From positions 41,745 through 105,744 of the forward strand of contig OMIN01000149.1 in the NCBI GenBank assembly GCA_900299145.1: 64,000 bases of DNA, written 5' to 3'. Of the stretch, positions 1 to 45,872 are shown one piece after another; within the stretch, counting starts at the first letter, position 1, and each line of letters starts with the position of its first letter. A model generated the notes under the pieces. It had not been told where the DNA came from and ran no database searches. It saw only the letters and a program-made list of their open reading frames with translations. Source of the stretch: Betaproteobacteria bacterium. Its GTDB lineage: Bacteria > Pseudomonadota > Gammaproteobacteria > Burkholderiales > SG8-41. The position numbers and the translations under genes were made by a program.

Positions 1-361
1 GGGGTGTGCGTATTACGGACGCCCGCTGAATGTGTATGGGGAAGGAAAGGCGGTAAGGGACTACATTTATGTTGACGACGTCATTGATGCCGTTTTTCTG
101 GCGGCGGCTCATTCAGGGTCGTCTGTCGTCAATATTTCCAGTGCTGTCGGCAGCAGTGTCATGGACATCGTACGTGCCGTAGAAGAAATTTCAGGACGGA
201 CTATCGTCAAGCGGTTTATTCCAGACCGTCCCGGCGATGTCGAAGTCAACGTACTGGACAATTGCAAGGCTAAACAACTATATGGTTGGAGCCCCAAAAC
301 CACGCTTAGGGAAGGCCTAAGAAAAACCTGGGAACATATCAGTCAGGGGCCGCCAGCGTAA
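1..361 (+). CDS. NAD-dependent epimerase/dehydratase, C-terminal part (5' end outside window)
   Basis: YGEGKAVRDYIYVDDV and RPGDV...WSPKTTLREGL match the C-terminus of extended SDR sugar epimerases; visibly lower GC than downstream genes. Confidence 0.85.
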   Translation, partial: GCAYYGRPLNVYGEGKAVRDYIYVDDVIDAVFLAAAHSGSSVVNISSAVGSSVMDIVRAVEEISGRTIVKRFIPDRPGDVEVNVLDNCKAKQLYGWSPKTTLREGLRKTWEHISQGPPA

Positions 362-417
362 CGGGGGCCAGCCGATAGCTATTGCCGACCTAGGCGAATT
401 TAGCAGCGATGATTCGC

Positions 418-558
418 TCAGCAGTAAAACATATTCGCGAAGCGCAGCAGCATCTCCGGGCTGAGATAACCGCGAAACGCCAGCACGCACAGTGCGGCCA
501 CAATCATTACCAGTAGTGCAAGGGTCAGCGCCCGGCGCGTTTGCGATAGTGGCATCAT
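418..558 (-). CDS. Small membrane protein, 46 aa (MMPLSQTRRALTLALLVMIVAALCVLAFRGYLSPEMLLRFANMFYC)
   Basis: Read by hand, below the ORF-track cutoff; basic N-terminus, one TM helix, terminal Cys, GAGAGG upstream. Confidence 0.6.
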   Translation of the reverse strand: MMPLSQTRRALTLALLVMIVAALCVLAFRGYLSPEMLLRFANMFYC

Positions 559-716
559 GGGGTGAGTAAGCCTCTCATGGTCATGATGATTATCCCATGG
601 CCGGCGCTACTGGCGCACCGCAAAATGAGGCGCATTTTGCGCCTGTGTCGTCCGGTAGTACAAGTTTCACCGGCCTGCACGCGAATCAAGCCCGGCAAGC
701 GGGCTTTTCGGTGCAC

Positions 717-733
717 TGCACAATCAATGTGCG
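717..733. promoter_or_regulatory. NtrC-like enhancer box TGCACAATCAATGTGCG
   Basis: GCAC-N7-GTGC spacing, about 100 bp upstream of a sigma54 promoter. Confidence 0.55.
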
Positions 734-780
734 AAACCACGCATTTTCGAGACGTGATGGTTGGCGGTTAGACCTATCCG

Positions 781-812
781 TAACTATCTGATTCATATAA
801 ATAAATAGAATT
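781..812 (+). promoter_or_regulatory. IHF-like site TAACTATCTGATTC plus A/T tract
   Basis: One mismatch from the reverse IHF consensus YAANNNNTTGATW; lies between the enhancer and the sigma54 promoter. Confidence 0.6.
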
Positions 813-833
813 TTCCGCCCGAGGGGGCGAAGG

Positions 834-848
834 TGGCACGTTGTTTGC
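834..848 (+). promoter_or_regulatory. Sigma54 (-24/-12) promoter TGGCACGTTGTTTGC
   Basis: Exact TGGCACG-N4-TTGC match, oriented toward the GntR operon. Confidence 0.8.
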
Positions 849-852
849 GATT

Positions 853-878
853 ACTTGTAGCAAGATGTTGATACAAGT
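853..878. promoter_or_regulatory. Inverted repeat ACTTGTA-N12-TACAAGT, probable GntR/HutC-family operator
   Basis: Perfect 7-bp arms spanning the predicted sigma54 start site, just upstream of a HutC-type regulator. Confidence 0.5.
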
Positions 879-894
879 GATACCCAGTGACACC

Positions 895-1794
895 GTGCCG
901 CCGTCAGCGGCATCGCGTTCTCGGGCGGTGCCCGTAGGCATTCCGCCGGCTTATGGTGCGCACGCTTCCAACAAGACGCAGCACGCATTGCAGGGCACGT
1001 TCAATCCCGCGTCGCCCATGCCCCTTTACTCGCAGATCCGCGAGTTGCTGCGCGCCCGCATCGCCGATGGTGAATTTGGCGTAGAGGGCAAAATGCCTTC
1101 CGAAAACGACATGGTGAAGGCATTTGGCGTCAGCCGCATCACCGTGCGTCAGGCTCTTAACGATCTGCAGAAGGAAGGGCTGGTTTTCAAGATTCATGGC
1201 AAGGGCACGTTTGCCGCGAAACCCAAGGCCGTGCAAAGCCTGATGCGTCTGGAAGGGTTCGGCGAGGCCATGTCCGCATCCGGCCATGAAACGTATTCGC
1301 GCGTAGTGGGGCATCGCGAATTACGGCCCGGCTGTCATGTCGCATCGCGCCTCGGTCTGGGCGCCGGCGAAAAAGCCGAGGTCATGGAAATACAGCGCAT
1401 CCGTTACCTTGACCAGAATCCCATCTCGCTGGACGTGACCTATTTACCGCTTGAGATAGGCCGCCGTTTGATCAAGGAAGACCTGCAACGTCGCGATATT
1501 TTTCTGATCCTTGAAAACGACTACGGCATTGCGCTCGACCGCGCGGAGTTGCGCGTGGACGCCATGCTGGCGGACGCGAAGCTTGCTGAAGCACTGGCTG
1601 TGCCGGAAGGGTCGCCGGTGCTGCGCATTGAACGCCTCACGCTGGCCGCCGGCGGCCAGCCGCTGGATTTTGAATATTTGTATTACCGGGGCGATGCCTT
1701 CCAATACTTCCTGATGGTGGGGCGCCGCAGCCATGCGAGCGGCACTGCCTCCGGTCAACTACCCAAAGGACTAGGCAGAGGAGCCAAAAAATGA
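895..1794 (+). CDS. GntR (HutC/UTRA) family transcriptional regulator; start uncertain (865-1018)
   Basis: PLYSQI...MPSE...FGVSRITVRQAL...GKGTF winged HTH plus C-terminal UTRA-like domain. Confidence 0.9.
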   Translation: MPPSAASRSRAVPVGIPPAYGAHASNKTQHALQGTFNPASPMPLYSQIRELLRARIADGEFGVEGKMPSENDMVKAFGVSRITVRQALNDLQKEGLVFKIHGKGTFAAKPKAVQSLMRLEGFGEAMSASGHETYSRVVGHRELRPGCHVASRLGLGAGEKAEVMEIQRIRYLDQNPISLDVTYLPLEIGRRLIKEDLQRRDIFLILENDYGIALDRAELRVDAMLADAKLAEALAVPEGSPVLRIERLTLAAGGQPLDFEYLYYRGDAFQYFLMVGRRSHASGTASGQLPKGLGRGAKK

Positions 1795-3521
1795 ATATCG
1801 TGGAAATGCAGACCGACGTGCTGGTGGTCGGCGGCGGCACTGCCGGGCCGATGGCGGCGGTCAAGGCCAAGGAGCGCAATCCCAAACTCAAAGTCATGTT
1901 GCTGGAAAAAGCCAACGTCAAGCGCAGCGGCGCCATTTCCATGGGCATGGACGGCCTGAATAACGCGGTGATTCCAGGCCACGCGACGCCCGAGCAATAC
2001 ACGCGGGAAATCACCGTCGCCAATGATGGCATCGTCAATCAAGCCACCGTCTACGCCTATGCCTCCAACAGCTTTAAGACGATTCAAGAGCTGGATCGCT
2101 GGGGTGTGAAGTTCGAGAAAGACGAAACCGGCGACTACGCGGTGCGCAAGGTGCATCACATCGGCACCTATGTGCTGCCGATGCCGGAAGGGCATCATAT
2201 GAAAAAGGTGCTCTACCGCCAACTCAAACGTGCCCGCGTGGATGTGACCAACCGCGTGGTGGCCACGCGTGTCCTGCTCGACAACAAGGGGCAGGTGGCG
2301 GGGCTGCTGGGCTTTGATTGCCGCTCGGGAGACTTTGTCGTGGTGCGCGCCAAAGCGGTAATTCTATGCTGCGGCGCGGCCGGGCGCATCGGCTTGCCCA
2401 CCTCGGGCTATCTTTTCGGCACTTACGAAAACCCCACCAACGCCGGTGACGGCTACAGCATGGCGTTTCACGCGGGCGCCGAGTTGTCCAATCTCGAGTG
2501 CTTCCAGATCAATCCGCTGATCAAGGATTACAACGGCCCGGCGTGCGCCTATGTCACGGGGCCATTTGGCGGCTATACCGCCAACGCCAAGGGCGACCGC
2601 TTCATCGAGTGCGATTACTGGAGCGGGCAGATGATGCAGGAGTTTTACAACGAACTGCAAAGTGGCAATGGCCCGGTATTTCTCAAGCTTGATCATCTGG
2701 CCGAGGAAACCATCCAGACCATCGAACATATTTTGCACACGAATGAACGGCCGAGCCGCGGCCGTTTTCATGCGGGGCGCGGTACCAACTACCGCAGCCG
2801 CATGATCGAAATGCACATTTCCGAAATTGGCTTTTGCAGCGGCCACAGCGCCTCTGGTGTTTATGTCAATGAAAAAGCGGAAACCACGGTGCCAGGGCTT
2901 TATGCGGCGGGAGATATGGCGAACGTGCCGCACAACTATATGCTGGGCGCGTTTACCTACGGCTGGTTTGCCGGTACGAATGCCGCTGACTATTGCGCGG
3001 AACATGAAGGCGGTGCGGTCGATCAAAGTCGCATCAATGCGGAAGTGCAGCGTGTGTCTGCGCCGCTGGCACGCAGCGGCGGGCTGCCGCCCAGCCAGGG
3101 GGAATACAAACTGCGGCGCATGGTCAACGACTATCTGCAACCGCCCAAGGCCACGCGCAAAATGCAGCTCGCACTGGAGCGGTTTGCCGAGATCCAAGAC
3201 GACATCAACCACCTCTGCGCTGAAAACCCGCATGAACTGATGCGGGCGATGGAAGTACAGGTAATCCACGACTGTGCCCGCATGGCGGCCAGCGCTTCGC
3301 TGTTCCGCGAGGAAAGCCGATGGGGGCTGTATCACAACCGGGTGGATTTCCCCACACGCAATGATGCCGAGTGGTTCACGCATTGCCATCTGCGCAAGGC
3401 GGGAGAAGACGGCATGGAGAGTTACAAGAAGCCCGTCGAGCCTTATCTGTTCCCGCTGGATGACGAAGAGAAGTCTGCTTATCAGCGCCTGCGCGTGGTA
3501 GCGCCCGCGCAATCGGCGTAA
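1791..3521 (+). CDS. FAD-dependent oxidoreductase, APS reductase alpha/AsfA-like (SdhA/FrdA superfamily)
   Basis: VVGGGTAG FAD motif, EKANVKRSGAISMG, GLYAAGD and REESRWG motifs; ATGA overlap with the regulator. Confidence 0.85.
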   Translation: MNIVEMQTDVLVVGGGTAGPMAAVKAKERNPKLKVMLLEKANVKRSGAISMGMDGLNNAVIPGHATPEQYTREITVANDGIVNQATVYAYASNSFKTIQELDRWGVKFEKDETGDYAVRKVHHIGTYVLPMPEGHHMKKVLYRQLKRARVDVTNRVVATRVLLDNKGQVAGLLGFDCRSGDFVVVRAKAVILCCGAAGRIGLPTSGYLFGTYENPTNAGDGYSMAFHAGAELSNLECFQINPLIKDYNGPACAYVTGPFGGYTANAKGDRFIECDYWSGQMMQEFYNELQSGNGPVFLKLDHLAEETIQTIEHILHTNERPSRGRFHAGRGTNYRSRMIEMHISEIGFCSGHSASGVYVNEKAETTVPGLYAAGDMANVPHNYMLGAFTYGWFAGTNAADYCAEHEGGAVDQSRINAEVQRVSAPLARSGGLPPSQGEYKLRRMVNDYLQPPKATRKMQLALERFAEIQDDINHLCAENPHELMRAMEVQVIHDCARMAASASLFREESRWGLYHNRVDFPTRNDAEWFTHCHLRKAGEDGMESYKKPVEPYLFPLDDEEKSAYQRLRVVAPAQSA

Positions 3522-3542
3522 CCCGGATACCAGGAGAAGACC

Positions 3543-3776
3543 ATGCCATTAGCCCTCAACCGCTCCAGTGTGCCGGTCACTGTAGACGCAGAAAAGTGCA
3601 TCGCCCATAAGGGCTGCACCGTGTGCGTGGATGTGTGTCCGCTGGACGTGCTTGCCATCGACATGTTGAAAGGCAAAGCGTACATGAAATTCGATGAATG
3701 CTGGTACTGCATGCCCTGCGAGCAGGATTGCCCGACGGGTGCAGTGCATGTCGATATCCCGTACTTGCTGCGCTGA
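3543..3776 (+). CDS. 2x[4Fe-4S] ferredoxin, AprB/AsfB-like
   Basis: CIAHKGCTVCVDVCP and CWYCMPCEQDCP motifs; AGGAG RBS. Confidence 0.9.
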   Translation: MPLALNRSSVPVTVDAEKCIAHKGCTVCVDVCPLDVLAIDMLKGKAYMKFDECWYCMPCEQDCPTGAVHVDIPYLLR

Positions 3777-3788
3777 CCGGGGCGATTG

Positions 3789-4751
3789 ATGAATACGACT
3801 GCCATGAATGCTGTGCCGCAAAGTTACCGCGAGCGTCTGGCCGATGCTGATGCCGAGGTACGGCGCATCGCGGTGATGGAGCTGCCCTACAGCGATGAGG
3901 ACGATTTCATTGAATTGGCGCTGGCGGCGCTGGCGGATGTTGCCGCGCCGGTACGCGCCGAAGCCGCCAAGGCGCTGGAGGGCATCGAAGAAGACGCGAT
4001 TGTTCAGGCGCTGGCCGAGGCCTTGCGCGATGCGGACAACAGCGTACGCGAGGCGGCAGCGTTGTCGCTGTCGGAACTCAAGGATCCGGCCATGAGCGCG
4101 CACGTGATTCCATACCTGTCGGATGCGGATGCGTTTACGCGCGCGGCAGCGTTTCGCGCGCTGCGTGAGCTGCGCGTGCCGGGGGTCTTCGATGCAGCGC
4201 TCGCGGCCTTGCAGGATGCCAGCGAGCGTGTGCGGCGCGAGGCGGTGGCCGTGCTGGGCTACCTCAAGAACCCCGCCGGGTTGGGCGAACTGACGCGCAT
4301 TGCCATGAACGATGCCGATTCGGAAGTGCGCCGGGCCGCAGTGGGAGCGTTGGGTTATGCCACGGGTGAACAGGTGGTACCGGCGCTGACGCACGCCCTG
4401 AAAGACGATTCGTGGCAGGTGCGCGAAGAAGCCGCAAGCACGTTGGGCAAAGTGAAACCGCGCGACGCCGTGGACAAGCTGATCGTGGCGATGACCGACA
4501 ACTATTGGCAGGTTCGCATACGCGCCATACGCAGTCTGGGCCGCATGAAGGCGCGTGAAGCGGTGGGAGCCATCGGCGAGGCATTGACACACACGGTGAG
4601 CAATGTGCGCAAGGAATCCGCCATCGCGCTGGGAGAAATCGGTGATGCCAAGGCGATACCCGCGCTTGAGAAAGCGCGCCTCGATACCGACCCGGATGTG
4701 CGCAAGCTGGCACAACTGGCGCTGGTCACCATCGCCGGCAAGGCGGCGTGA
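3789..4751 (+). CDS. HEAT repeat (PBS lyase-like) protein
   Basis: About nine D-x-x-x-x-VR-x-x-A-x-x-x-LG type repeats. Confidence 0.9.
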   Translation: MNTTAMNAVPQSYRERLADADAEVRRIAVMELPYSDEDDFIELALAALADVAAPVRAEAAKALEGIEEDAIVQALAEALRDADNSVREAAALSLSELKDPAMSAHVIPYLSDADAFTRAAAFRALRELRVPGVFDAALAALQDASERVRREAVAVLGYLKNPAGLGELTRIAMNDADSEVRRAAVGALGYATGEQVVPALTHALKDDSWQVREEAASTLGKVKPRDAVDKLIVAMTDNYWQVRIRAIRSLGRMKAREAVGAIGEALTHTVSNVRKESAIALGEIGDAKAIPALEKARLDTDPDVRKLAQLALVTIAGKAA

Positions 4752-4825
4752 GAGCTGATGTGGATTGGATATAAGTATCTGTTTTTATTGAATTTTTATG
4801 TAGTGACTTCAAGGAGATCGATATC

Positions 4826-6283
4826 ATGAAAGCGCCAGGCCGACTGTCTCACTACTGCCGTAATGTTGTGCATTGGTTGCAGCGTGGCGCGGCTGTCTGC
4901 GCGATTCTGGTACCCGTTGCTGGCACTGCGCAAACGATCGAAATCGGCATCGGCACGCAGAACACCACCACCAACACAGTGACTGGCGGCATCGTCATCA
5001 AGGAAATGAAGCTGCTTGAAAAACATTTGCCCAAGACCGGCAAATATCAAAACGCGAATTTCAAAATCGATTGGCAAAATTTCACGTCCGGCCCGCCGGT
5101 GACCAACGGCATGATGGCCAACCGTATCCATATCGGCATGATGGGCGATTACCCGCTGCTGGTGAATGGCGCGACGGGCCAGCAATCGAAGAACGAAACC
5201 CAGTTGGTGGCGATCATCGCTTACAACGCGCATGGCGCGGGCAACGGCCTGGTAGTGCACAAGGATTCGCCGTACTACGCGCTGGAGGATTTGAAAGGCA
5301 AGAATGTGTCGGTGCCGTTCGGCTCGGCAGCCCATGGCATGTTGCTGCAGGCGATGAAAACGCGGGGCTGGCCGGAAAACTTCTGGAACCTCGCCAATCA
5401 AAGCCCGGAAGTCGGTACCACCAACTTGCAGGAAAAGCGTCTGGACGGGCACGCCAATTTTGTGCCATTCGCCGAGTTGTTGCCGTATCGCGGTTTTGCA
5501 CGGAAGATTTTTGATGGCGCCGAGACCAAGGTGCCAACCTTTCACGGCGTGGTGGTACGCAAGGATTTTGCGGAACAACATCCTGAAATCGTGGTGGCGT
5601 ACATCAAGGCGCTGATGGAAGCCAACGACTGGGTGCGCAAAAATCCCAAGCTGGCCGCCGAGAAAATTGAGGAATGGACCAAGATCGAGAAGGAAGTCGC
5701 CTACGTATTTCTTGGGCCGGGCGGCATACACACGCTGGATCCGACCATCAAGCCCAAGTGGTTGGAAACGATCGGTATCGCAGCGGATGTGCTGCGCGGG
5801 TTGGGCCGTCTGAAAGAGTTCAACGTGCAGGCGTGGGTGAACGACAAATATGTAAAGCAGGCGTTCAAGGAGCGCGGCCTCGACTACGACAAGCAACTCT
5901 CGTCGCTGTCGAACTACGAAGTCACCGGCAAAGACCCGGTCTGCAACACCGTAATCACCAAGCCGCGCGATGGCGGCGAAATCTGGCTGGAAGGCAGCGA
6001 GATCGTGCCGTTCAGCTCGCAAGGCTGCACCTTGCTGGGCGCGCGCAAATATACGGGTGAAGGCAAAAAACTGCGCGCGGTCTACTTGTATGACCGAGGG
6101 CTGGGCATCAAGGTATTCGCCGACAAAGCGTTCTATGCCTTTAGCGACAAGGAAGGCAAACAGGCCGAAGCGGTGCCTTTTCTGCTGAAAAAGGACGCGC
6201 AAGCGCACGCCACCAAAATCGGCGGGCGTTTGCTTACTTACAACGAAGTATTGGGTACGTCCGTCACCACCGCAAGCCGCTGA
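4826..6283 (+). CDS. ABC transporter substrate-binding protein (NitT/TauT/SsuA family) with C-terminal NosL-like extension
   Basis: Signal peptide; WQNFTSGPP, GMMGDYP and DLKGKNVSVPFGSAAH motifs; extra ~120-aa domain starting DPVCN. Confidence 0.85.
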   Translation: MKAPGRLSHYCRNVVHWLQRGAAVCAILVPVAGTAQTIEIGIGTQNTTTNTVTGGIVIKEMKLLEKHLPKTGKYQNANFKIDWQNFTSGPPVTNGMMANRIHIGMMGDYPLLVNGATGQQSKNETQLVAIIAYNAHGAGNGLVVHKDSPYYALEDLKGKNVSVPFGSAAHGMLLQAMKTRGWPENFWNLANQSPEVGTTNLQEKRLDGHANFVPFAELLPYRGFARKIFDGAETKVPTFHGVVVRKDFAEQHPEIVVAYIKALMEANDWVRKNPKLAAEKIEEWTKIEKEVAYVFLGPGGIHTLDPTIKPKWLETIGIAADVLRGLGRLKEFNVQAWVNDKYVKQAFKERGLDYDKQLSSLSNYEVTGKDPVCNTVITKPRDGGEIWLEGSEIVPFSSQGCTLLGARKYTGEGKKLRAVYLYDRGLGIKVFADKAFYAFSDKEGKQAEAVPFLLKKDAQAHATKIGGRLLTYNEVLGTSVTTASR

Positions 6284-6303
6284 ATCATCGCAGGATAACC
6301 GTC

Positions 6304-7248
6304 ATGTACGCTGCAACCATGCCACCACCGGATTCAACTACCGCCACGGCTAAACCCTCTGCAACGATTATCGCATTGCAGGGGCACGCGGCCGGCGAGG
6401 CGGCTCAGGCCAGGCCAGAGCCGCGTCCCTCGGCGCCATTTGCAGACCGGGTGGCGAGGTGGTTGTCGCTGCACGGTCTTAGCCTGCTGTTGTGGAGTAT
6501 TTCGCTGGGCGCACTGTTTGCAGTTTGGTATTTCGGCACGAAGTATCGCGTGGATTTTTTCATCCGTTTTACCAACATTCCGACGCCCACCGAGGTGTTT
6601 GCCAAAATTCTCGAGGTCAACAAATCTGCAAAGTACATGGTCAACATCGGCATCAGCGTGCGACGTATTCTTTCCGGGTTTTGCATTGCGATAATCGTCG
6701 CGGTGCCGATGGGGCTGTTGATCGGACGCTACCGCGCGGCGCGGGATTTGCTGTTGCCGGCATGTGAAGTGCTGCGGCCTATACCCGCGATTGCTTGGGT
6801 GCCGATGTCCATTATGCTGTGGCCCAGCAACGAAATCAGCATTGTGTTTATTACGTTTCTGGGTTCGTTTTTCCCGATATTGCTGAACACGGTACACGGC
6901 GTCACTGCACTCGATCCGGTTCTGTTGCGCGCGGGGCGCTGTCTGGGGGCAAACGAGGCGCGCATGTTCTGGCATGTCATCTTGCCCGGCGCTTTGCCGC
7001 ATATTTTTACGGGACTGGCGGTGGGCATGGGTGTGGCGTGGGTGTCGCTGATCGCGGCGGAAATGATTTCCGGCCAGTTTGGCGTCGGTTACTTCACCTG
7101 GGAAGCCTATTCGCTCATCAGCTATGCCGAGATCGCATTGGGCATGATTACCATCGGCGTGCTGGGGCTGGCATGTAGCGGCCTGATTCGCATGCTGGGA
7201 AGGCTCGCCATGCCGTGGGAGGTATTTACAAACAGGGGTAACCGGTGA
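6304..7248 (+). CDS. ABC transporter permease (TauC/SsuC family)
   Basis: LRPIPAIAWVP, EAA-like loop, LIAAEM, multiple TM helices. Confidence 0.9.
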   Translation: MYAATMPPPDSTTATAKPSATIIALQGHAAGEAAQARPEPRPSAPFADRVARWLSLHGLSLLLWSISLGALFAVWYFGTKYRVDFFIRFTNIPTPTEVFAKILEVNKSAKYMVNIGISVRRILSGFCIAIIVAVPMGLLIGRYRAARDLLLPACEVLRPIPAIAWVPMSIMLWPSNEISIVFITFLGSFFPILLNTVHGVTALDPVLLRAGRCLGANEARMFWHVILPGALPHIFTGLAVGMGVAWVSLIAAEMISGQFGVGYFTWEAYSLISYAEIALGMITIGVLGLACSGLIRMLGRLAMPWEVFTNRGNR

Positions 7249-8111
7249 GCCCGATTGCCGACGCGAAGGGCCTGATTGAAATTGGCGATCTGGGCGTGAC
7301 ATTCGGCGCGAACGGGACCGCCGTGGAGGCCATCACCAGCGTGTCATTGACAGTAAAACCGGGCGAGTTTGTTTCGCTGATCGGCCCTTCAGGGTGCGGC
7401 AAGTCGACGCTGCTCAATATCGTTGCAGGCTTCGTTAAGCCGACGAGGGGAACAGTGAAGGTGGATGGCTTGCCCGTGTCGGGGCCAAGCGCCAACCGCG
7501 GCGTGGTGTTCCAGCAGTACTCGCTGTTTCCGTGGCTGAAGGTGCGGGAGAACGTCGAGTTTGGACTGCGCATGCAGGGCATGCCCAGCGGACAACGCGA
7601 AACCATGGCGCGCACGCTGTTGGGGCTGGCGGGCTTGCTGGCATTTGAAAATCATTACCCGGATCAATTGTCCGGTGGCATGAAGCAGCGCGTGGGCATC
7701 GTGCGCGCACTGGCGACCAGCCCGCAGGTGCTGCTGATGGATGAACCTTTCGGCGCGCTGGATGCGCAAACGCGCGTGGTGATGCAGGAAATCCTGACGA
7801 ATATGTGGCAGCAGTTCCGGCTGTCGGTGTTGTTCATCACCCACGATATCGAAGAATCGATATTTTTGTCGGATCGCGTGTTCGTGATGACCGCGAGGCC
7901 GGGCCGCATTAAAGCGGAAATCGCCGTGCCGTTGCCGCGCCCACGCACACCGGAGATGACGTCTTCGACGGAATTCATCGCCATGGTGCAGCAGCTGAAA
8001 TCGCTGATTCGAGAAGAGTCGCTGGCAGCCATGGGTTCTGAACTCAAAGAAGGCGGTTTGTCCGGTTTCAGCATGTCGGTTGGGCCCAGCGGCGTGGCGC
8101 AAGTGATATGA
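7245..8111 (+). CDS. ABC transporter ATP-binding protein (TauB/SsuB family)
   Basis: Walker A GPSGCGKS, LSGGM signature, LLMDEPFGALD. Confidence 0.92.
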   Translation: MSPIADAKGLIEIGDLGVTFGANGTAVEAITSVSLTVKPGEFVSLIGPSGCGKSTLLNIVAGFVKPTRGTVKVDGLPVSGPSANRGVVFQQYSLFPWLKVRENVEFGLRMQGMPSGQRETMARTLLGLAGLLAFENHYPDQLSGGMKQRVGIVRALATSPQVLLMDEPFGALDAQTRVVMQEILTNMWQQFRLSVLFITHDIEESIFLSDRVFVMTARPGRIKAEIAVPLPRPRTPEMTSSTEFIAMVQQLKSLIREESLAAMGSELKEGGLSGFSMSVGPSGVAQVI

Positions 8112-8419
8112 CAACGCTCGAGAGGGACTTCGAAAAGCCGCTGGCTCTGCGCGTCATGGGTTCGTCGGGGCGGTTGGAGATGGACTGGGCGGGTGGGCGC
8201 ACCACTGCCGTGACGCATGCGAAATTAAGAGAACAGTGCCGGTGCGCGGTCTGTGTAGCGCGGCGCCAGTGCGCGGGTAGCATCAACGTCCCGCCAGATG
8301 TTCGACTGACCGATGTAACGCCTTTTGGGCCCAATGCCGTGCGATTGACGTTTAGCGATGGCCATGGCCGCGGCATCTATCCGTTTGAATGGTTGCAAAC
8401 CCTCGCGACGGCTGGGTGA
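8108..8419 (+). CDS. DUF971 / GBBH-N-like metal-binding protein
   Basis: LREQCRCAVC...FSDGHGRGIYPFEWL pattern; ATGA overlap with the ATPase. Confidence 0.8.
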   Translation: MTTLERDFEKPLALRVMGSSGRLEMDWAGGRTTAVTHAKLREQCRCAVCVARRQCAGSINVPPDVRLTDVTPFGPNAVRLTFSDGHGRGIYPFEWLQTLATAG

Positions 8420-8503
8420 CCGCTGCAACAATGCGGGAGTTTGTTGAGCAACCACGCTTATTGGAAGATAATTACCAGTTTTCATCGGAAATTTTGAGGT
8501 AAC

Positions 8504-11500
8504 TTGATAGCACCTGTTGATACAAGACCTCAGGCGGGCCAGTATGAATCAGGGGAATTGGGATTTGGCATGCGTTTTGCCGATCTTTACGATTCCGCAG
8601 CGTTGGTGAAATTGGACGCGGCGTTCCTGACTTTCGTGGCGGCGCGCGATGGCGAACTACACCAGCGCTTGTTGACAGCGCGCCTGGCATCCACCGAACT
8701 GCCGGTTAAAGCCCAGTCCGAATTGTTGCTCGCCCTCACGTCCCACGTTGAGGCGTTCATCGCGGCGTTGTTTGGCATTGCATCCGAAGTGGGGGCACTG
8801 ACCGCACGTCATCTGGAATTGTCGCCGCTGTATTCCGTTAAGCGTCTTTTCGTGCAACGCAAGGCCGCGAACAAATATAAGGGGGCTGCCGCTGATGCCC
8901 TGGATGGCCCGGCGCTGGCTTCGCGGCTTGAGCGTTTGCTGGGCAATTCATTGACGGAACTGCTGTTCGCACAAAAAGTCAGTGAATGGCAAAAGGATGA
9001 AGCCGCTAACGCCGAAGCGCTGGATGTCGCGTTGCAGTATGCCGCGTGGGCCTTGCAAACCGAGGCAGGGCGCAAAAAGCATGCGGCGGGCGTGCTGTTC
9101 AAGGCGCCGCACAAGCTCGACGCGCAGCATCTGGTGCCCTCCGCAGTGGATGCCACGCCGGGTTACACGGTGCACACGTTTCCCGTGGAAAAACTGCGCC
9201 GCCGCGAGGGGTTCAAGCTCACGGATAAAGGCACTGATCTCACCGGCGCGCTGGACCACGCCAATTACTGCATCTGGTGCCACGAGCAGGGCAAGGATTC
9301 CTGCTCGAAGGGGCTTCTGGAAAAAGGCGCCAGCGGGCGTGGCGCAGCGTCATTCAAGAAAAGCGCATTTGGCGTGACGCTCGCGGGCTGCCCGCTGGAA
9401 GAAAAAATTTCCGAGTTTCACAAAGCCAAGACCGAGGGCTACGCCATTGGCGCGCTGGCGATCATCACCGTCGATAACCCGATGGCGGCGGCTACCGGGC
9501 ATCGCATCTGCAACGACTGCATGAAGGCATGCATTTACCAGAAGCAGGAGCCGGTCGATATCCCGCAGGCAGAAACGCGCACGCTGAAAGACGTGCTGGA
9601 ACTGCCGTGGGGCTTTGAGATTTACAGCTTGCTGACGCGCTGGAACCCGCTGAATTTGCGCAAGCCGTTGCCGCAAGCGCCCAGCGGCAAGCGTGTGCTG
9701 ATCGCGGGCATGGGCCCGGCGGGGTTTTCGCTGGCGCATTATTTGATGAACGACGGGCACACGGTGGTCGGCATCGACGGCCTGAAAATCGAGCCGTTGC
9801 CGGCGAAATTTTCGGGTGTCGAGGCCAATGGCACGCGCGTGCCATTCATGCCGATACGCGATGTACGCGAGCTTTACGAAAATCTCGATGAGCGCGTGAT
9901 GGCCGGCTTTGGCGGCGTGGCGGAATACGGCATCACCGTGCGCTGGGATAAAAATTTCTTAAAAATCATAAGGTTACTGCTGGAACGCCGGCGTGAATTC
10001 GCACTCTTTGGCGGCGTGCGTTTTGGCGGCACGATCACCGCCGATGACGCGTTTGCGATGGGCTTTGACCATGTGGCGCTCGCCATCGGGGCGGGCCGGC
10101 CGACGGTGCTGGATATGCCCAATGGCCTGGCGCGTGGCGTGCGCACCGCGTCGGATTTTTTGATGGCGTTGCAACTCACGGGGGCTGCGCGCACCGATTC
10201 GATCGCCAACATGCAATTGCGATTGCCGGTGGTGGTGGTGGGCGGCGGACTGACGGCCATCGACACCGCGACGGAGGCGCTGGCGTATTACCCGCTGCAA
10301 GTCGAGAAGCTGTTGTCGCGCTACGAAGCCATGGCGCGCGAACACGGCGAAATGGCGGCGCGGCTGGCGTGGAACGAGGAAGAGCGCCAGATCGGCGATG
10401 AGTTTCTTACCCATGCGCGTGCGTTACGCGAGGAGCGCGCGAAGGCCGCTGCGGAAAATCGCGCGCCACGCATTGTTGAATTGCTGCAGTCGTGGGGTGG
10501 CGCAACTATTGCGTATCGCAAGCGGCTGATCGACAGCCCGTCGTATACGCTCAATCACGAGGAAGTGCACAAGGCGCTGGAAGAGGGCATACGTTTTGCC
10601 GAGGGGCTGACGCCGGTGGCGGTGGAGATCGATGGTTTCGGCCACGCGAAGGCGCTCAAGGTGTCGGCCAAAAACAGCGAAGGTGTTGCGGGCGAGTTTG
10701 TCACGCCGGCACGTACGATTCTGATCGCAGCGGGCACGCAACCCAACACCGTGCTGGCGCGCGAAGACGCGGCGAACTTCAAACTGGATGGCCGCTATTT
10801 TCAGGCGATTGATGCGGCGGGCAATGCTACGGCTGCCGAGAAATCGATCTCAAAACCCAATGAAATCAAGGTGTTGCTGGCGAAGCGTGCGGATGGCCGC
10901 GCGATGAGTTATTTCGGCGATGTACATCCGTCGTTCTTTGGCAATGTGGTGAAAGCCATTGGCAGCGCGAAGCAGGGCCACCCGGTGGTGAGCGCCGCGC
11001 TGCAAGAGGTGCAACCAGCGTCAGACGCCAGTGATGCGGATTTCATCGCGGGACTCAACCGCGATTTGCGCGCCACGGTGCATGAAGTCAAGCGGCTGAC
11101 ACCGATGATCGTCGAAGTGGTGGTGCGCGCGCCGCTTGCCGCGCGGCAGTTTCAGCCGGGGCAGTTTTACCGGCTGCAGAATTTTGAAGCAGGCGCGATC
11201 CGCACCGAAGGCACGTTGCTTGGCATGGAAGGGCTTGCGCTCACTGGTGCCTGGGTGGATCGTGATCAGGGTTTGATTTCGACCATTGTGCTGGAAATGG
11301 GCGGCTCCAGCGATTTGTGCCTGCTGTTGAAGCCCGGCGAGCCGGTGATTCTGATGGGGCCGACGGGCACGCCAACGGAGATTCCAGCGAACGAAACCGT
11401 GGCACTGGTGGGTGGCGGGCTGGGCAACGCAGTGCTGTTTTCCATTGGGCAGGCGATGCGCAAGGCTGGCAGCAAGGTGTTGTATTTCGCTGGCTATAAG

Positions 11501-12055
11501 AAAATGGACGACCGCTACAAGATCGCGGAAATCGAGGCTGCGGCAGACGTGGTGGTGTGGTGCTGCGACGATGAGCCTGGCTTTACGCCGTCGCCCAACC
11601 GGCCGCAGGATAAAAGCTACGTTGGTAACATTGTGCAGTGCATGCACGCCTACGCGAGCGGCGCCATGGGGGCACAGCCGTTGCTGCTGCAGGACGCGGA
11701 TCGCATTATCGCAATTGGTTCGGATCGCATGATGGCGGCGGTGGCGCGCGCGCGGCATGAGTTGTTAAAACCCTTCGTGAAGCCGCATCATTTTGCGATT
11801 GGTTCGATCAACTCGCCGATGCAGTGCATGATGAAGGAAATCTGCGCGCAGTGTTTGCAGCCGCATGTCGATCCCGCGACGGGCAAGACGAGTTATGTGT
11901 TCTCGTGTTTTAATCAGGATCAGCCGCTGGATCAGGTGGACTGGAATGGCCTGAATCAGCGGCTGCGGCAGAATTCGGTACAGGAAAAATTGAGCGCCGA
12001 GTGGCTGGATTATTGCCTGATCAAATCGGGCGCGCGGGAGATGCAGCGGATTTGA
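8504..12055 (+). CDS. Fused GltD/NfnB-like and PyrK/NfnA-like Fe-S flavoprotein; start uncertain (alternative ATG at 8570)
   Basis: N-half: CIWCH..C, GCP, GHRICNDCMKAC, GMGPAG, GGGLTAID. C-half: PGQFYRL, MGPTG, GGGLG, MQCMMKEICAQC...FSC. Confidence 0.8.
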   Translation: MIAPVDTRPQAGQYESGELGFGMRFADLYDSAALVKLDAAFLTFVAARDGELHQRLLTARLASTELPVKAQSELLLALTSHVEAFIAALFGIASEVGALTARHLELSPLYSVKRLFVQRKAANKYKGAAADALDGPALASRLERLLGNSLTELLFAQKVSEWQKDEAANAEALDVALQYAAWALQTEAGRKKHAAGVLFKAPHKLDAQHLVPSAVDATPGYTVHTFPVEKLRRREGFKLTDKGTDLTGALDHANYCIWCHEQGKDSCSKGLLEKGASGRGAASFKKSAFGVTLAGCPLEEKISEFHKAKTEGYAIGALAIITVDNPMAAATGHRICNDCMKACIYQKQEPVDIPQAETRTLKDVLELPWGFEIYSLLTRWNPLNLRKPLPQAPSGKRVLIAGMGPAGFSLAHYLMNDGHTVVGIDGLKIEPLPAKFSGVEANGTRVPFMPIRDVRELYENLDERVMAGFGGVAEYGITVRWDKNFLKIIRLLLERRREFALFGGVRFGGTITADDAFAMGFDHVALAIGAGRPTVLDMPNGLARGVRTASDFLMALQLTGAARTDSIANMQLRLPVVVVGGGLTAIDTATEALAYYPLQVEKLLSRYEAMAREHGEMAARLAWNEEERQIGDEFLTHARALREERAKAAAENRAPRIVELLQSWGGATIAYRKRLIDSPSYTLNHEEVHKALEEGIRFAEGLTPVAVEIDGFGHAKALKVSAKNSEGVAGEFVTPARTILIAAGTQPNTVLAREDAANFKLDGRYFQAIDAAGNATAAEKSISKPNEIKVLLAKRADGRAMSYFGDVHPSFFGNVVKAIGSAKQGHPVVSAALQEVQPASDASDADFIAGLNRDLRATVHEVKRLTPMIVEVVVRAPLAARQFQPGQFYRLQNFEAGAIRTEGTLLGMEGLALTGAWVDRDQGLISTIVLEMGGSSDLCLLLKPGEPVILMGPTGTPTEIPANETVALVGGGLGNAVLFSIGQAMRKAGSKVLYFAGYKKMDDRYKIAEIEAAADVVVWCCDDEPGFTPSPNRPQDKSYVGNIVQCMHAYASGAMGAQPLLLQDADRIIAIGSDRMMAAVARARHELLKPFVKPHHFAIGSINSPMQCMMKEICAQCLQPHVDPATGKTSYVFSCFNQDQPLDQVDWNGLNQRLRQNSVQEKLSAEWLDYCLIKSGAREMQRI

Positions 12056-12122
12056 CAGTGCGCTCGCCGAGACATTGTAAGTATCTGTTTTTATTAAATA
12101 TTTTATTTCAGGGCGGCACGTC

Positions 12123-13211
12123 ATGAAACTCGGTTTTTTCACCATGCCCATCCATCCGCCAGAGCGTAACTACACGCAAACGCTGAAGGAGGATCGCGAG
12201 GCGATTTTGCTGGCGGATTCGTTGGGCTATAGCGACGCGTTTATCGGCGAGCACACCACCGACATTTGCGAAAACATTCCGTCGTGCTTGGCGTTCATCG
12301 CGAGTCTGGCGCATGGCACGAAGCAGATCAGGCTTGGCAGTGGCACGGTGAATTTGCCGAATAGTCATCCGGCGGCGGTGGCGGCGAACGTGGCGATGGT
12401 TGATCACATGCTTGAGGGGCGTTTTCTGTTCGGTATCGGGCCGGGCGGGCTGCGCTCCGATCAGGAAGTGTTCGGCAACATCAAGAACGACCGCACCAAA
12501 ATGTTTGTCGAGTCAATCGATCAGATACTCGGCATCTGGGCGGGCCAGCATCCGTATGATCTTAAAGGTGAATTCTGGAACATCACCACGCGCGAAACCA
12601 TGATTCCCGAAGTGGGGCAGGGCGTGATGTTAAAGCCCTATCAGCAGCCGCATCCGCCGATTGTGGTCACTGTGGTGGAGCCGTATTCCAAGGGTGTGAC
12701 GGCCGCCGCGCAGCGCGGCTGGAAGCCGATCTCAGCGAATTTTTTGCAGCCCAACTGGGTGAAGACGCATTTCGAGAGTTACGCCAAGGGCTGTGAGATT
12801 GCCGGTTTGCCGGCGAACCGTTCAGACTGGCGCGTGTGCAAAAGTATTTTTGTCGCGGATGACGATGCCACGGCGAAACGCTATGCCAAGACGCGCGAAG
12901 GTCCTTATGGCTTTTACTTCTGGAACCTGCTGACCAAGCGCAAGGCGCGGGGTGCGGCGAATATTTACAAGCCCGATCTGTCGATGCCCGACGAAGCGGT
13001 GACAGTGGAATTCGTGCTGGACACGCTGGTGATTGCCGGCGGTGTGGATTCGGTGGTGGAGCAAATTCTCAAGTTTCGCGAGACCACCGGCGACTTTGGC
13101 ACATTGCTGTATTGCGGGCACGATTGGGTGGAGCCGAAACTTGCGCGCCGTTCGATGGAATTGATGGCGACGCAGGTGATGCCGCGGGTGAATGCGGCGC
13201 TGGGGCAGTAA
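12123..13211 (+). CDS. LLM-class (luciferase-like) flavin-dependent oxidoreductase
   Basis: MKLGFF..P, ADSLGY..AFIGEH, IRLGSG, DHMLEGRF, PYQQPHPPI. Confidence 0.88.
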   Translation: MKLGFFTMPIHPPERNYTQTLKEDREAILLADSLGYSDAFIGEHTTDICENIPSCLAFIASLAHGTKQIRLGSGTVNLPNSHPAAVAANVAMVDHMLEGRFLFGIGPGGLRSDQEVFGNIKNDRTKMFVESIDQILGIWAGQHPYDLKGEFWNITTRETMIPEVGQGVMLKPYQQPHPPIVVTVVEPYSKGVTAAAQRGWKPISANFLQPNWVKTHFESYAKGCEIAGLPANRSDWRVCKSIFVADDDATAKRYAKTREGPYGFYFWNLLTKRKARGAANIYKPDLSMPDEAVTVEFVLDTLVIAGGVDSVVEQILKFRETTGDFGTLLYCGHDWVEPKLARRSMELMATQVMPRVNAALGQ

Positions 13212-13244
13212 CGTCTCGCCGTTCGTGAGGCCGTGCCGCGCGGC

Positions 13245-14786
13245 CTACGAAAAAAATCCGTGCAGGTACCAGCGCGCGTTGACGTCGCGCTCGCGGTATA
13301 TCCACAGCAGCGATTGCGCGCGATTGCGCGCGACAAAGTAATCGCGCGCGACATGCCGGCCGTCCCACCAGCCGGCTTCGATACGTTCGGGGCCGGCGAG
13401 TAACGACAGTGGGCTGCCGTCGCTGTCGCGCGGCGCCGCGCGGACGCCGGTGCTGCCGCCATCATCCGTATCCTTTGAGCCGCCGGTGTCCCGTAAAGGG
13501 CGTGGCGTGGTCAGCAGCCACAGCGGGCGGGCGGGGGTGTAGGTGGAATGGGTTGTGGCAGTTGAAGCGGATGGGGAAGATGGGGACGATGAGGCGGAAG
13601 TTGCCACGCCCGGCTGGCAGGTGCGCCAGGCACGCTCCGGGCGGTAATCGGCGTGCGGTGTCAGGCCGCAAATGGCCTGCGCGCCGAGCCGTGCATTGAG
13701 CCGTTCGACAAAGCGCGTCGCGTCGCTGGCCTCGTCCGTGCCGCCGGGCAAAAAAGCGAGATTACGTGAGGCGAGCGGCACCACCCGCCCCGACGCAATG
13801 GCGATTTCGACGGCGGCGCACGGCAGCTCGGTGCGATTGAGGCGTTCGCGCAACAGCGTGGTCAGGTGATCAAGCTCGCGGGTGGCGCTGGAAAGCTCCA
13901 GTGTGATGACCGTAACTATTTGTTTTTCATGAATAAATTCAAAGCGGGGGTGTTGCACGCCGTGGCCGCTGGAGGCGAGCCAGCCGCAGAGTTCGGCGAG
14001 CAGACGGCGCGCGGCGAAGAGCAGTGCCTCGGCATTGGCCACGGGTGCGGGTAGTTGCAGCGCAGCACACCAGGTTTGCGGAGCGACAAACGGCAGGCGC
14101 GGATCAGGGGCAAGGCCCAGCGCGTGATCCAGTTGTATAAGCAGACGCGGGCCGGCGCGGCGCGTAAGACCATCGCGCGGCAGACGCAGGCAATCGCCCA
14201 GCGTGTGCGCGCCGAAGCTTTGCAGCAGATGCTGGGTGGCGGTGTCTTCACACGCCATGGCGGTCGGGAGTTTTTCAAGCGCATGGCGCAGCGCGTCGTG
14301 GTGCTGCACGCGCACATTGACCCCCGCGCGTGCGAACCATGAAGCGGCGAGCGGCGTGGGCGCACAGGCGATGCTGGCACTAAAACCCAAGTCCGCTACG
14401 CCGCGCGCGATCTGCTGGTGCAGTTTGGCGAGACCACCGAAGAGTTTCAGCGAGCCTTCGATGTCGAGTAGCACGGTATCCAGCCCGGCCAGACTGACCA
14501 ATGAAGTGAATTGCAGCGACCATGCGGCGATGCGCGCCAGCGTGGTCTGTTCCCGGGCGCTGTCACGCACGAGGGTTTGCAGCCCGGCGGCCAGCGCGCA
14601 CGCCGCCGCCACACTCATGCCCGGCTGCACGCCGCGTGCCAGTGCCGGGCGGTTGGCGTCAACTATGACGGCGCTGGTTTCGGCGCTGGAAGCAACCGCC
14701 GCGGCCGCGGGTTGTGGCTGCAGCGGCGTGCCGCGCGTGAAAACTTCCAGCGGCAGATGGCGAAAATGCAGCGCAAGCCACAACAT
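13245..14786 (-). CDS. imuB: ImuB, inactive Y-family polymerase
   Basis: MLWLAL.F..LPLE start; GVQPGM, ERLNARLG, RPLWLL and GPERIEAGWWD...RDYF...WYLHG motifs. Confidence 0.9.
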   Translation of the reverse strand: MLWLALHFRHLPLEVFTRGTPLQPQPAAAAVASSAETSAVIVDANRPALARGVQPGMSVAAACALAAGLQTLVRDSAREQTTLARIAAWSLQFTSLVSLAGLDTVLLDIEGSLKLFGGLAKLHQQIARGVADLGFSASIACAPTPLAASWFARAGVNVRVQHHDALRHALEKLPTAMACEDTATQHLLQSFGAHTLGDCLRLPRDGLTRRAGPRLLIQLDHALGLAPDPRLPFVAPQTWCAALQLPAPVANAEALLFAARRLLAELCGWLASSGHGVQHPRFEFIHEKQIVTVITLELSSATRELDHLTTLLRERLNRTELPCAAVEIAIASGRVVPLASRNLAFLPGGTDEASDATRFVERLNARLGAQAICGLTPHADYRPERAWRTCQPGVATSASSSPSSPSASTATTHSTYTPARPLWLLTTPRPLRDTGGSKDTDDGGSTGVRAAPRDSDGSPLSLLAGPERIEAGWWDGRHVARDYFVARNRAQSLLWIYRERDVNARWYLHGFFS

Positions 14787-14843
14787 GGGGAGAGGAAGAA
14801 AAAGGCGGGCGGTTTCAAATCGGTGCGCGGATCAATGCACGAG

Positions 14844-15608: not shown

Positions 15609-15659
15609 CAGAATCATCGTAACGCTTGTCTGGAAGAGGCCGGTGATCTTAGTGGTCAA

Positions 15660-15719
15660 CCACGGATTACATGGAGGAACCGTGTGCGGGCATTTCTGCG
15701 TGTTTCACGTGTTCCGTGG
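15660..15719. repeat. Intergenic palindromic element CCACGGA...TCCGTGG
   Basis: Imperfect terminal inverted repeat with 9-nt subunits between lexA and imuA. Confidence 0.5.
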
Positions 15720-15729
15720 CCAATGGCTT

Positions 15730-44192: not shown

Positions 44193-44252
44193 GAATTTGC
44201 TCTATATTCGTTACGCTTGCGCTGGCGGCGGCACGGGCCGGCGGCCAGCAAT

Positions 44253-44290
44253 GCGTGTTATACGTGTTATGCGTGTAAATGCGTATCAAT
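44253..44290. repeat. 9-mer tandem repeat (GCGTGTTAT-like) in a divergent promoter region
   Basis: GCGTGTTAT ACGTGTTAT GCGTGTAAAT GCGTATCAAT. Confidence 0.5.
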
Positions 44291-44348
44291 TTACATTAAT
44301 GGGCCAAGATCTCCCAGCGGCGATTTTAGCAGGGCAACGGAGGTGTCA

Positions 44349-45848: not shown

Positions 45849-45872
45849 TCTGAATAGGAGGCTATAAAAAAT

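Follow-up and report, generated by a model that had tools for sequence, protein, structure and literature searches.

Why should an AsfAB-type gene cluster, a system associated with sulfonate desulfurisation, lie behind a promoter of the NtrC/sigma54 type, and what would its products do there? The question is raised by a 64,000-nucleotide stretch of DNA (hereafter the window; 60% G+C) on contig C149 of a Betaproteobacteria bacterium, the genome of which is a 5.5-Mb draft in 158 contigs and 99.7% complete. The asf cluster, at window positions 657-13211, contains next to an AsfA-like flavoprotein the complete AsfAB-type gene set, namely ferredoxin, GntR regulator, SsuA-type importer, HEAT-repeat protein and DUF971 protein. 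A preliminary description of the same DNA had taken it for an operon resembling adenosine 5'-phosphosulfate (APS) reductase and placed under nitrogen control. The locus is a regulatory and organisational variant of the known AsfAB system, whose reaction has never been defined. Nitrogen control, exerted by a predicted NtrC/sigma54 promoter and a putative substrate-sensing repressor, is well supported by comparison of related loci. The explanation as a whole, an NtrC/sigma54-driven, GntR-gated importer-enzyme module of the gene order termed Type I below that cleaves X-SO3 compounds reductively, goes further, and we regard it as moderately probable.

Published accounts describe asfA as a marker of aromatic sulfonate desulfurisation in Variovorax, Polaromonas, Acidovorax, Cupriavidus, Burkholderia and Pseudomonas, and AsfAB as a reductase/ferredoxin pair under sulfate-starvation control (PMC4267179, PMC2864759). 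At least 582 related loci turned up when one genome of each species was scanned, and the best 80 were analysed as named loci. Their AsfA proteins are 73-94% identical to that of the window, and they include Pseudomonas, Paraburkholderia, Burkholderia, Cupriavidus, Herbaspirillum, Acinetobacter, Methylomonas and Sulfuriferula. More than 6391 relatives came from a protein search at E<=1e-100; they carry the generic name fumarate reductase/succinate dehydrogenase flavoprotein. By gene order the 80 loci fall into 57 of Type II, 12 without a transporter, 8 of Type I and 3 that are odd or cut. The order in Type I, to which the window belongs, is AsfAB-HEAT-substrate-binding protein (SBP)-permease-ATPase-DUF971, as against AsfAB-SBP-permease-ATPase-HEAT-DUF971 in Type II of Pseudomonas and Burkholderiaceae. 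The SBPs of Type I are 63-90% identical to that of the window and those of Type II about 40%. In an AsfA tree built by a quick method, with Shimodaira-Hasegawa approximate likelihood-ratio (SH-aLRT) support only and the row of genome G028 on a long branch, Type I forms three basal groups, and most Type II sequences form one well-supported clade of 66 rows.

The window cluster belongs to the same NF006131 family as asfRABC of Pseudomonas putida S-313 and the asfA marker gene of soil Burkholderiales. Its AsfA is 73-78% identical to those of Pseudomonas, Burkholderia, Cupriavidus and Variovorax-type loci, and it has in common with the known Asf loci the 8-Cys ferredoxin, the SsuA/TauA-type importer and the HEAT and DUF971 proteins. 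It differs in the position of the HEAT gene ahead of the transporter, in a dedicated donor gene encoding an 1183-aa protein, in sulfur-replete proteins, in the lack of the sulfur-scavenging neighbours of classical Asf loci, and in its promoter. The LysR/sulfate-starvation control described for S-313 is replaced by a predicted sigma54 promoter with an NtrC-type enhancer, and the proteins show no sulfur depletion.

All four upstream elements named in the preliminary description, the GCAC-N7-GTGC enhancer core, an IHF-like site, a sigma54 promoter and an inverted repeat, are present (Table 1). Might they be chance matches upstream of an operon driven by an unrecognised sigma70 promoter? Motif counts in window and genome are indeed at chance level: the window has one match to the sigma54 pattern (0.54 expected), five to GCAC-N7-GTGC (3.69 expected) and one to the TACAAGT half-site (0.35 expected), and the genome has 21 exact sigma54 matches, with 4-34 for scrambled control patterns. 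Coding and non-coding sigma54 matches were not separated by a crude gene caller based on G+C at third codon positions, and the genome matches were then sorted by open-frame filters and family scans. Sigma70-like matches are likewise at chance level. Against it stands conservation. Nine orthologous upstream regions were aligned (seven of the genus, one from a fragmentary genome and one from another family; mean column identity 61%), and 41 invariant columns fall on TACAAGT, on GCAC and GTGC, on TGGCAC and TTGC, and on the operator. The first three of these elements are each invariant, in position as in sequence, in 9/9 relatives, as are the right arm of the operator and its flanks. An exact IHF consensus, read by eye, occupies the same place in relatives G013, G002 and G015. 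A tenth copy (G012, locus L013) has three in-frame TGA codons in asfA and looks like a decaying operon copy; it keeps the enhancer core, and it has also lost the -12 GC (TTGT instead of TTGC). The upstream motifs, though at chance level within the window, are convincing because they are invariant in these relatives and recur, with helical-phase spacing, in distant lineages; the sigma70 alternative retains a very small probability. The enhancer/IHF-like/sigma54 layout proposed earlier is real and conserved across orthologs.

The distribution of these elements follows cluster type. Among the 80 named loci, the NtrC core lies upstream of the first gene in 6/6 Type I loci with upstream sequence and in 0/72 others. 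The same six have the sigma54 element, in one case (L041) as a -12 GTGC variant read by eye; further cases are an odd Methylomonas locus and, with doubt, the Type II locus L116. A second set, drawn evenly from the order, comprised 401 genomes, 23 of them with asfA at E<=1e-150. Some genomes are the same as or close to those of the 80-locus set and relatives are not independent; within these bounds, 12 loci have sigma54 element and core site, 4 the sigma54 element only, 4 neither, and 3 are not judgeable, so that the sigma54 element is present in 16/20 determinable asfA loci. The sigma54 element stands without the core in G028, whose promoter is abutted by a palindrome, and in three genomes of genus g131. 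Core site and -24 GG are 115-117 bp apart in the clade of the window and 104-106 bp apart in others, a difference of one helical turn, with L132 (138 bp) as an exception. Conservation of the sigma54/NtrC sites in homologous operons thus extends from the nine aligned relatives to distant Type I lineages.

A GntR gene lies upstream of asfA in 77/80 loci. A palindrome of CTTGTCAT(A/G)ACAAG type is found between promoter and regulator gene in all loci read, those of Type II included, and a related one (CTTGTCATGACAAG type) stands ahead of the GntR gene both where sigma54 is present and where it is not. Because a palindrome precedes the regulator gene in all loci read, autoregulation and sensing of the substrate are the most likely functions of the GntR/UTRA protein. 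Its predicted operator covers, in Type I, the expected sigma54 start, and the arrangement would therefore act as an AND gate of nitrogen limitation and inducer.

Which activator would serve this promoter? Besides rpoN, the genome encodes four proteins in which a sigma54-interaction domain is recognised (E<=1e-20), none of them on the contig of the window. One is NtrC, which passes the equivalog model TIGR01818 with 695 bits (cut-off 559). The others adjoin a PilS-type kinase gene, lie between a flagellin gene and fliE-fliJ, or adjoin the gene of a PEP-CTERM system ATPase. Since these neighbours assign the three to pili, flagella and PEP-CTERM, NtrC, the sole metabolic activator among the four, is by elimination the only plausible activator of the asf promoter, and would bind at the enhancer; NtrC-type control as first proposed is strengthened. 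Elsewhere in this genome the core site recurs upstream of sigma54-type promoters, those of glnA, with two sites spaced by 31 bp, of allophanate hydrolase and of a nitrate-type ABC operon. An NrtA-like gene and amtB have NtrC-like half-sites ahead of them, and the pilin promoter has no NtrC-like site. The asf promoter layout matches those of glnA and allophanate hydrolase. Like NtrC promoters of the glnAp2 type it has -24 GG and -12 GC elements, a core enhancer about 100-120 bp upstream and an IHF-like AT-rich spacer; unlike them it has a single enhancer with inner positions off consensus, and a GntR-type operator over the start with a second half-site upstream. Full-length NtrC orthologs (58-73% identity) are present in 4/5 other Type I genomes tested, and the fifth is a 2.6-Mb bin whose locus has no upstream sequence. 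The flagellar enhancer-binding protein has no ortholog in the other Type I genomes tested. No published link of asfA to NtrC, RpoN or nitrogen limitation was found among the papers listed by a search that is not proof of absence. As a side observation, locus L030 (G000, contig C151) has a sigma54 promoter with an NtrC core 178 bp upstream, and encodes a 119-aa protein without family matches, an SsuA-family binding protein and an NtrB-type permease.

Three lines of evidence that make no use of the promoter, namely protein composition, neighbouring genes and the ligand pocket described below, bear on the choice between nitrogen and sulfur. Sulfur-starvation proteins are poor in Cys and Met. The Cys+Met content of the SBP is 2.85% in Type I (n=12) vs 0.90% in Type II (n=56), and that of the HEAT protein 2.07% (n=12) vs 0.34% (n=53), contrasts that Mann-Whitney p values overstate because relatives are not independent; for AsfA the values are 5.56% and 5.21%, a 1.07-fold difference. 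A Cys373/Cys401 pair is invariant in Type I SBPs and replaced in 56/56 of Type II. In an independent set, six loci with sigma54 element and core have 2.0-2.9% Cys+Met in the SBP and 1.6-2.3% in the HEAT protein, vs 0.9% and 0.0% in three g131 loci with sigma54 element and no core, and 1.1% and 0.0-0.7% in three loci without the sigma54 element. Side-chain nitrogen content is lower in Type I proteins, a measure set aside as confounded by genome G+C. Neighbouring genes in Type II include taurine dioxygenase (tauD), tauB, NtaA/DmoA-family monooxygenases, SfnB-like and SsuA-like genes, as well as a family 2A encapsulin with cysteine desulfurase, cysE, D-cysteine desulfhydrase and a MetQ-like gene; none of these sulfur-scavenging neighbours is found in the window or the other Type I loci. 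The earlier suggestion that the operon scavenges something other than sulfur fits both this sulfur-replete composition and these neighbours.

These data also bear on a second explanation, in which the cluster is a classical sulfur-scavenging AsfAB system that aids an oxygenase acting on aromatic sulfonates, its sigma54 promoter being fired by an activator of the SfnR kind. The identity of 73-78% between AsfA and the Pseudomonas and Burkholderiaceae proteins speaks for it, as do the description of asfA as required for aromatic sulfonate use, the luciferase-like (LLM) oxidoreductase gene downstream, and SfnR, described as a sulfur-linked sigma54 activator. So does genus g131, where sigma54-driven Type II operons encode sulfur-depleted proteins and have no NtrC-type site; because of these operons and of SfnR, sigma54 alone is not a nitrogen signature, a point on which the preliminary description needs correction. 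The g131 operons, at loci L139, L140 and L150, have the Type II order and a clear sigma54 promoter (TTGGCACGG-N3-TTGCAAT) without NtrC core, and are candidates for a sulfur-responsive sigma54 activator. However, the window enhancer carries the NtrC core that is absent from the g131 promoters, none of the four enhancer-binding proteins is SfnR-like or near sulfur genes, the SBP and HEAT protein are not sulfur-depleted, the SBP keeping its invariant Cys pair, and no sulfur-scavenging neighbours were found in the window. This explanation is therefore considered improbable.

What kind of enzyme would the promoter control? AsfA passes NF006131/PRK08275 with 1093.2 bits (cut-off 587). Both AprA models failed (TIGR02061, 172.5 vs 641.75 bits; NF005331, 295 vs 557 bits), and AsfB reaches 38.3 bits vs the aprB cut-off of 135.65 (TIGR02060). 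The best solved relative of AsfA is 8a8o_A, the alpha subunit of the PAPS (3'-phosphoadenosine 5'-phosphosulfate) reductase from Methanothermococcus thermolithotrophicus (218-262 bits), followed by Archaeoglobus AprA. In common with 8a8o and AprAB there are an alpha subunit with flavin adenine dinucleotide (FAD) and a beta subunit with two [4Fe-4S] clusters, the EKA..RSGA stretch and the Asn74 equivalent in AsfA, and the Trp of the C-W-x-C ferredoxin motif; the EKA..RSGA and Trp-containing motifs had been pointed out before. Across 38 sequences of AsfB, eight Cys and Trp54 do not vary. The differences are that AsfA is only about 35-40% identical, and that the asf cluster has no ATP sulfurylase or APS kinase in its context and is coupled to an importer. 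The 3'-phosphate loop residues of PAPS reductase (Lys120, Arg121, Ser122 in PMC10322725) are not kept in AsfA, which has a His-rich insertion there. By sequence, AsfA and AsfB have the architecture of an APS/PAPS reductase, yet are no such reductase, and the predicted substrate is not a nucleotide; of the proposed APS-reductase-like enzyme, the likeness to AprA and PAPS reductase stands and the APS reductase itself does not.

That the operon is an ordinary one for APS reductase, fumarate reductase or L-aspartate oxidase has scarcely any probability left. Weak family matches do exist, to aprA (172 bits), sdhA/frdA (163 bits) and nadB (112 bits), but all lie far below the cut-offs, whereas NF006131 is passed; AsfB falls short of aprB, an ABC importer is included, and no sat, qmo/aprM, dsr or membrane-anchor genes occur among the 50 scanned open reading frames (ORFs) of the window, to which this search was confined. 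The absence of ATP sulfurylase, Dsr and Qmo/AprM nearby had been noted correctly.

The importer offers a view of the substrate. The SBP has a TauA/SsuA-like domain and a C-terminal extension of about 190 aa, which holds the Cys373/Cys401 pair. Its closest solved relatives are TauA (6ssy, 69 bits) and SsuA (53 bits), vs 30 bits for NrtA. Matches of the permease to SaoP, NtrB, TauC and SsuC models and of the ATPase to SaoA and TauB models are all below cut-offs; the names SaoA, SaoP and SaoX come from such NCBIfam matches. Pocket positions were mapped by sequence alignment to TauA and the residues given in PMC6906117, with an inferred offset of 21 residues between the numbering of the chain and that of the paper. 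TauA holds the sulfonate by a backbone Ser-Gly and Gly, which are conserved here, and the importer belongs to the same transporter family as TauABC and SsuABC. TauA differs in its amine-binding residues Glu106, Thr132 and Asp205, which align with Asn140, Ala168 and His240, as well as in lacking the C-terminal domain and Asp108; taurine was set aside as ligand, as the acidic amine-binding residues are not conserved in the predicted pocket. At 12/15 mapped positions the commonest residue is the same in Type I and Type II, and 10 of these are fully invariant. Asp108, next to the oxyanion Gly and counted with the ten, is Asp in 12/12 Type I and 54/56 Type II proteins and Glu in the other two. Because the pocket positions are nearly the same in both types and the TauA amine residues are replaced, Type I and Type II SBPs probably bind the same or a very similar ligand, which would not be taurine.

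These results have to be set against a further explanation under NtrC control, in which a nitrogen oxyanion or similar compound free of sulfur serves as substrate and has an N-X bond reduced by AsfAB, without release of sulfite. Transporters of this family also carry nitrate, nitrite and cyanate, in keeping with the NtrB and NtrCD model matches, and other NtrC-type promoters of the genome drive NrtA-like transporters; in addition, the sulfate-binding Arg of AprA is absent and the substrate loop remodelled in AsfA. But the pocket is nearly identical to that of Type II SBPs from operons of the sulfur-starvation type, the TauA sulfonate-binding Ser-Gly and Gly are kept, and the closest solved SBPs are TauA and SsuA, not NrtA. 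Membrane protein genes at two Type I loci also argue against it: a TauE/SafE gene lies directly upstream at the Sulfuriferula locus, and a PF03601 gene, presumably TauZ-like, upstream in G028. A sulfur-free substrate appears unlikely on this evidence.

The HEAT protein corresponds to the C-terminal part of the fused family NF010374 (positions 654-895 of 898) and AsfA to its N-terminal part. Because this curated flavoprotein-HEAT fusion exists, the HEAT protein is a probable partner subunit of AsfA, and its suggested role as a mere maturation factor is unlikely. In the DUF971 protein, C44, C46, C49 and H86 are invariant in 25 sequences. The 1183-aa protein is likely an NAD(P)H-driven electron donor, to judge from its domains (Table 1); its gene is syntenic in 7 Type I loci of the clade of the window, occurs also in a second Type I clade (42-44% identity), and adjoins 0/57 Type II loci. 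An FdxA-type ferredoxin gene (PF11953 + Fer4) lies between the HEAT and SBP genes in relatives, as at L034:5202-5528 (G002); the window has a 75-bp gap without FdxA at this place. In G028 an FNR-like gene follows the DUF971 gene.

The explanation that we favour, the NtrC-controlled X-SO3-cleaving module, would work as follows. Transcription would start from the sigma54 promoter, activated by NtrC about 117 bp upstream with the assistance of an IHF-type bend, and a GntR/HutC-type repressor at the start site would block it until an inducer arrives, so that expression would require both nitrogen limitation and substrate. The ABC importer, with the TauA/SsuA sulfonate backbone of its SBP, would bring in an X-SO3 compound. 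Electrons would pass from NAD(P)H to the 1183-aa protein, in relatives through FdxA, to the AsfB clusters and on to the FAD of AsfA. AsfAB, with its HEAT partner and the Zn-type DUF971 protein, would then split the compound reductively into sulfite and a nitrogen-bearing remainder; the nitrogen would be assimilated, and the sulfite exported or oxidised. Gene content, conserved promoter architecture, the set of enhancer-binding proteins and the contrast between Type I and Type II are observed; NtrC binding at the site, reductive sulfite release, the path of the electrons and the substrate we infer. The sulfite-releasing reading is adopted because of the homology to PAPS reductase and AprA, the donor genes, and the exporter genes at two loci. 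The PAPS reductase of M. thermolithotrophicus is described as an alpha2beta2 FAD/[4Fe-4S] enzyme, assayed with reduced viologen, that works reductively with low-potential electrons and releases sulfite, and its authors propose an attack of FAD N5 on sulfur (PMC10322725).

Several observations weigh against this explanation. The AprA positions Tyr95, Trp234 and Arg265 and the Glu141/Gln145 loop are those that we take to be APS-binding or catalytic. Arg265, Trp234 and Tyr95 align with Leu243, Tyr212 and Glu73 of AsfA, and the nucleotide-binding loop of AprA and PAPS reductase is replaced by an invariant His-rich insertion. With these positions changed and the loop replaced, a mechanism through an FAD-N5-sulfite adduct is not assured, and the biochemical claim is weakened. 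The genetics reported in PMC4267179 ties asfA to arylsulfonate as sulfur source and presents AsfAB as electron supplier to an oxygenase. On the regulatory side, the enhancer (GCACAA-N3-ATGTGC) is single and matches the NtrC consensus less well than the sites of glnA; at glnA and amtB the genome has GCACC.../...GGTGC. The Methylomonas sigma54 promoter has a different upstream repeat, and the main text of a study of the Methylomonas NtrC regulon names no GntR, sulfonate, sulfatase or flavoprotein genes (PMC12799797). The draft genome, with its 158 contigs, could hide a further activator. The only metatranscriptome with the locus contains 7% of the sampled words, as seven short perfect or near-perfect contigs on 1-13400 at depth 2-4; because one of them (534-749) precedes the promoter, DNA carry-over is possible and the contigs do not show transcription. 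Three other public runs contain mostly fragments of relatives (90-95% likeness).

A wider proposal is that sulfur starvation governs the module in Pseudomonas and Burkholderiaceae, and NtrC/sigma54 governs the same module in freshwater and chemolithotrophic members of the Burkholderiales, its substrate containing both nitrogen and sulfur and being cleaved reductively at an N-S or C-S bond. AsfAB would then represent a novel type of APS-reductase-like enzyme. We offer this proposal only tentatively. A substrate with both elements is attractive because a near-identical pocket is wired to sulfur starvation and to nitrogen starvation; sulfamate or another N-sulfonated or amino-sulfonate compound would be examples, with sulfite and ammonia or an amine as products. 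Sulfamate, suggested in the preliminary description, would suit such chemistry, its S(VI) centre being APS-like and nitrogen the leaving group.

The features of the cluster are collected in Table 1.

Table 1 Features of the asf cluster and its upstream region, in window coordinates.
Feature	Position	Strand	Evidence or remark
Upstream copy of GntR-type operator half-site AGTACAAGT	657..665	+	about 175 bp before -24 element
Enhancer (upstream activating sequence), NtrC core GCAC-N7-GTGC	718..732	.	about 117 bp upstream of promoter
IHF-like site in AT-rich spacer	781..793	-	8/9 specified positions of the IHF consensus as we take it, YAANNNNTTGATW
Sigma54 -24/-12 promoter, TGGCAC-N5-TTGC	834..848	+	exact pattern match
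Predicted GntR/HutC-type operator over expected transcription start	853..878	.	perfect 7-bp inverted repeat, 853-859 / 872-878
GntR regulator with UTRA effector domain	931..1794 (ORF 841-1794)	+	PF00392 71 bits, PF07702 122 bits
AsfA-like FAD flavoprotein, 576 aa	1791..3521	+	NF006131 1093 bits
AsfB ferredoxin, 77 aa, 2x[4Fe-4S], C-W-Y-C motif	3543..3776	+	Fer4 family matches
HEAT-repeat protein	3786..4751	+	PF13646 183 bits
Periplasmic binding protein (SBP), 485 aa	4826..6283	+	TIGR01728 124 bits
ABC permease, NitT/TauT type	6304..7248	+	PF00528
ABC ATPase	7245..8111	+	PF00005
DUF971 small protein (GBBH-like N-terminal, Cys3-His)	8108..8419	+	PF06155 71 bits
1183-aa GltD-like + PyrK-like Fe-S flavoprotein	8504..12055	+	PF07992, PF14691; NF005128 791 bits (cut-off 1072, not reached)
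LLM oxidoreductase, possibly final gene of unit	12123..13211	+	PF00296 144 bits

All genes of the cluster are co-oriented on the + strand, and the first eight, with 4-bp overlaps at three junctions (1791, 7245 and 8108), are arranged as first described. An extent of 717-8419 holds for these eight genes, but not as the end of the cluster, since the 1183-aa flavoprotein gene follows after 85 bp and the LLM gene comes next; no convincing terminator was found inside the cluster, and the strand changes only after 13211. The start of the GntR gene is uncertain, with in-frame candidates at GTG 931, TTG 988 and ATG 1018; the TTG at 841 falls within the promoter. Because conservation at the protein level reaches about 10 residues upstream of 1018, GTG 931 or TTG 988 is as likely as ATG 1018. 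The LLM oxidoreductase, syntenic in G001 and G002 only, reaches no equivalog model. It is not an SsuD (no TIGR03565 match at E<=1e-10), as the earlier statement that no SsuD is nearby had it, although that statement overlooked the gene itself.

Other observations concern the surroundings. A 46-aa ORF for a small hydrophobic protein (418-558, - strand) is divergent from the asf promoter region; in relatives the DNA of its start region is conserved, and the TACAAGT half-site sits between this ORF and the enhancer. Directly after the cluster, at 13245-16332 (- strand), lies a probable SOS mutagenesis cassette of lexA, a 271-aa ORF without family matches and an ImpB/MucB-family (imuB-like) gene. 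Further downstream (44004-47713), genes for a PF01645 glutamate-synthase-domain protein, a SorA-like sulfite dehydrogenase (below cut-off) and a cytochrome c follow one another; the SorA-like gene is a possible sulfite sink 36 kb from the asf cluster. Locus L103 (Methylomonas methanica) has a TTGGCA...TGCCAA inverted repeat upstream of its sigma54 promoter instead of the NtrC core; its asf-like cluster includes a sulfotransferase gene, and arylsulfotransferase and sulfatase genes precede it. The Type II asf clusters of L045 and L078 (Paraburkholderia, Cupriavidus) adjoin genes for a family 2A encapsulin shell and its cysteine desulfurase cargo, and L045 also adjoins a serine O-acetyltransferase gene. 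Window positions 600-4800 were recovered almost whole in metagenomes of freshwater, lake water, drinking water, estuary and aquatic origin from 11 studies; three of these runs could be those from which the genome was assembled.

In published soil and rhizosphere studies asfA has served as a marker of sulfonate desulfurisation, for a reaction that has never been defined. If it is true that a large branch of the family responds to nitrogen limitation, asfA counts could not be read simply as sulfur mobilisation. The two wirings, if real, would narrow the search for the substrate to compounds with both nitrogen and sulfur, and the system could matter for the turnover of dissolved organic nitrogen and sulfur in freshwater, lake, drinking-water and estuary habitats. 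The contrast of Type I and Type II offers a concrete route to the long-missing reaction of AsfAB.

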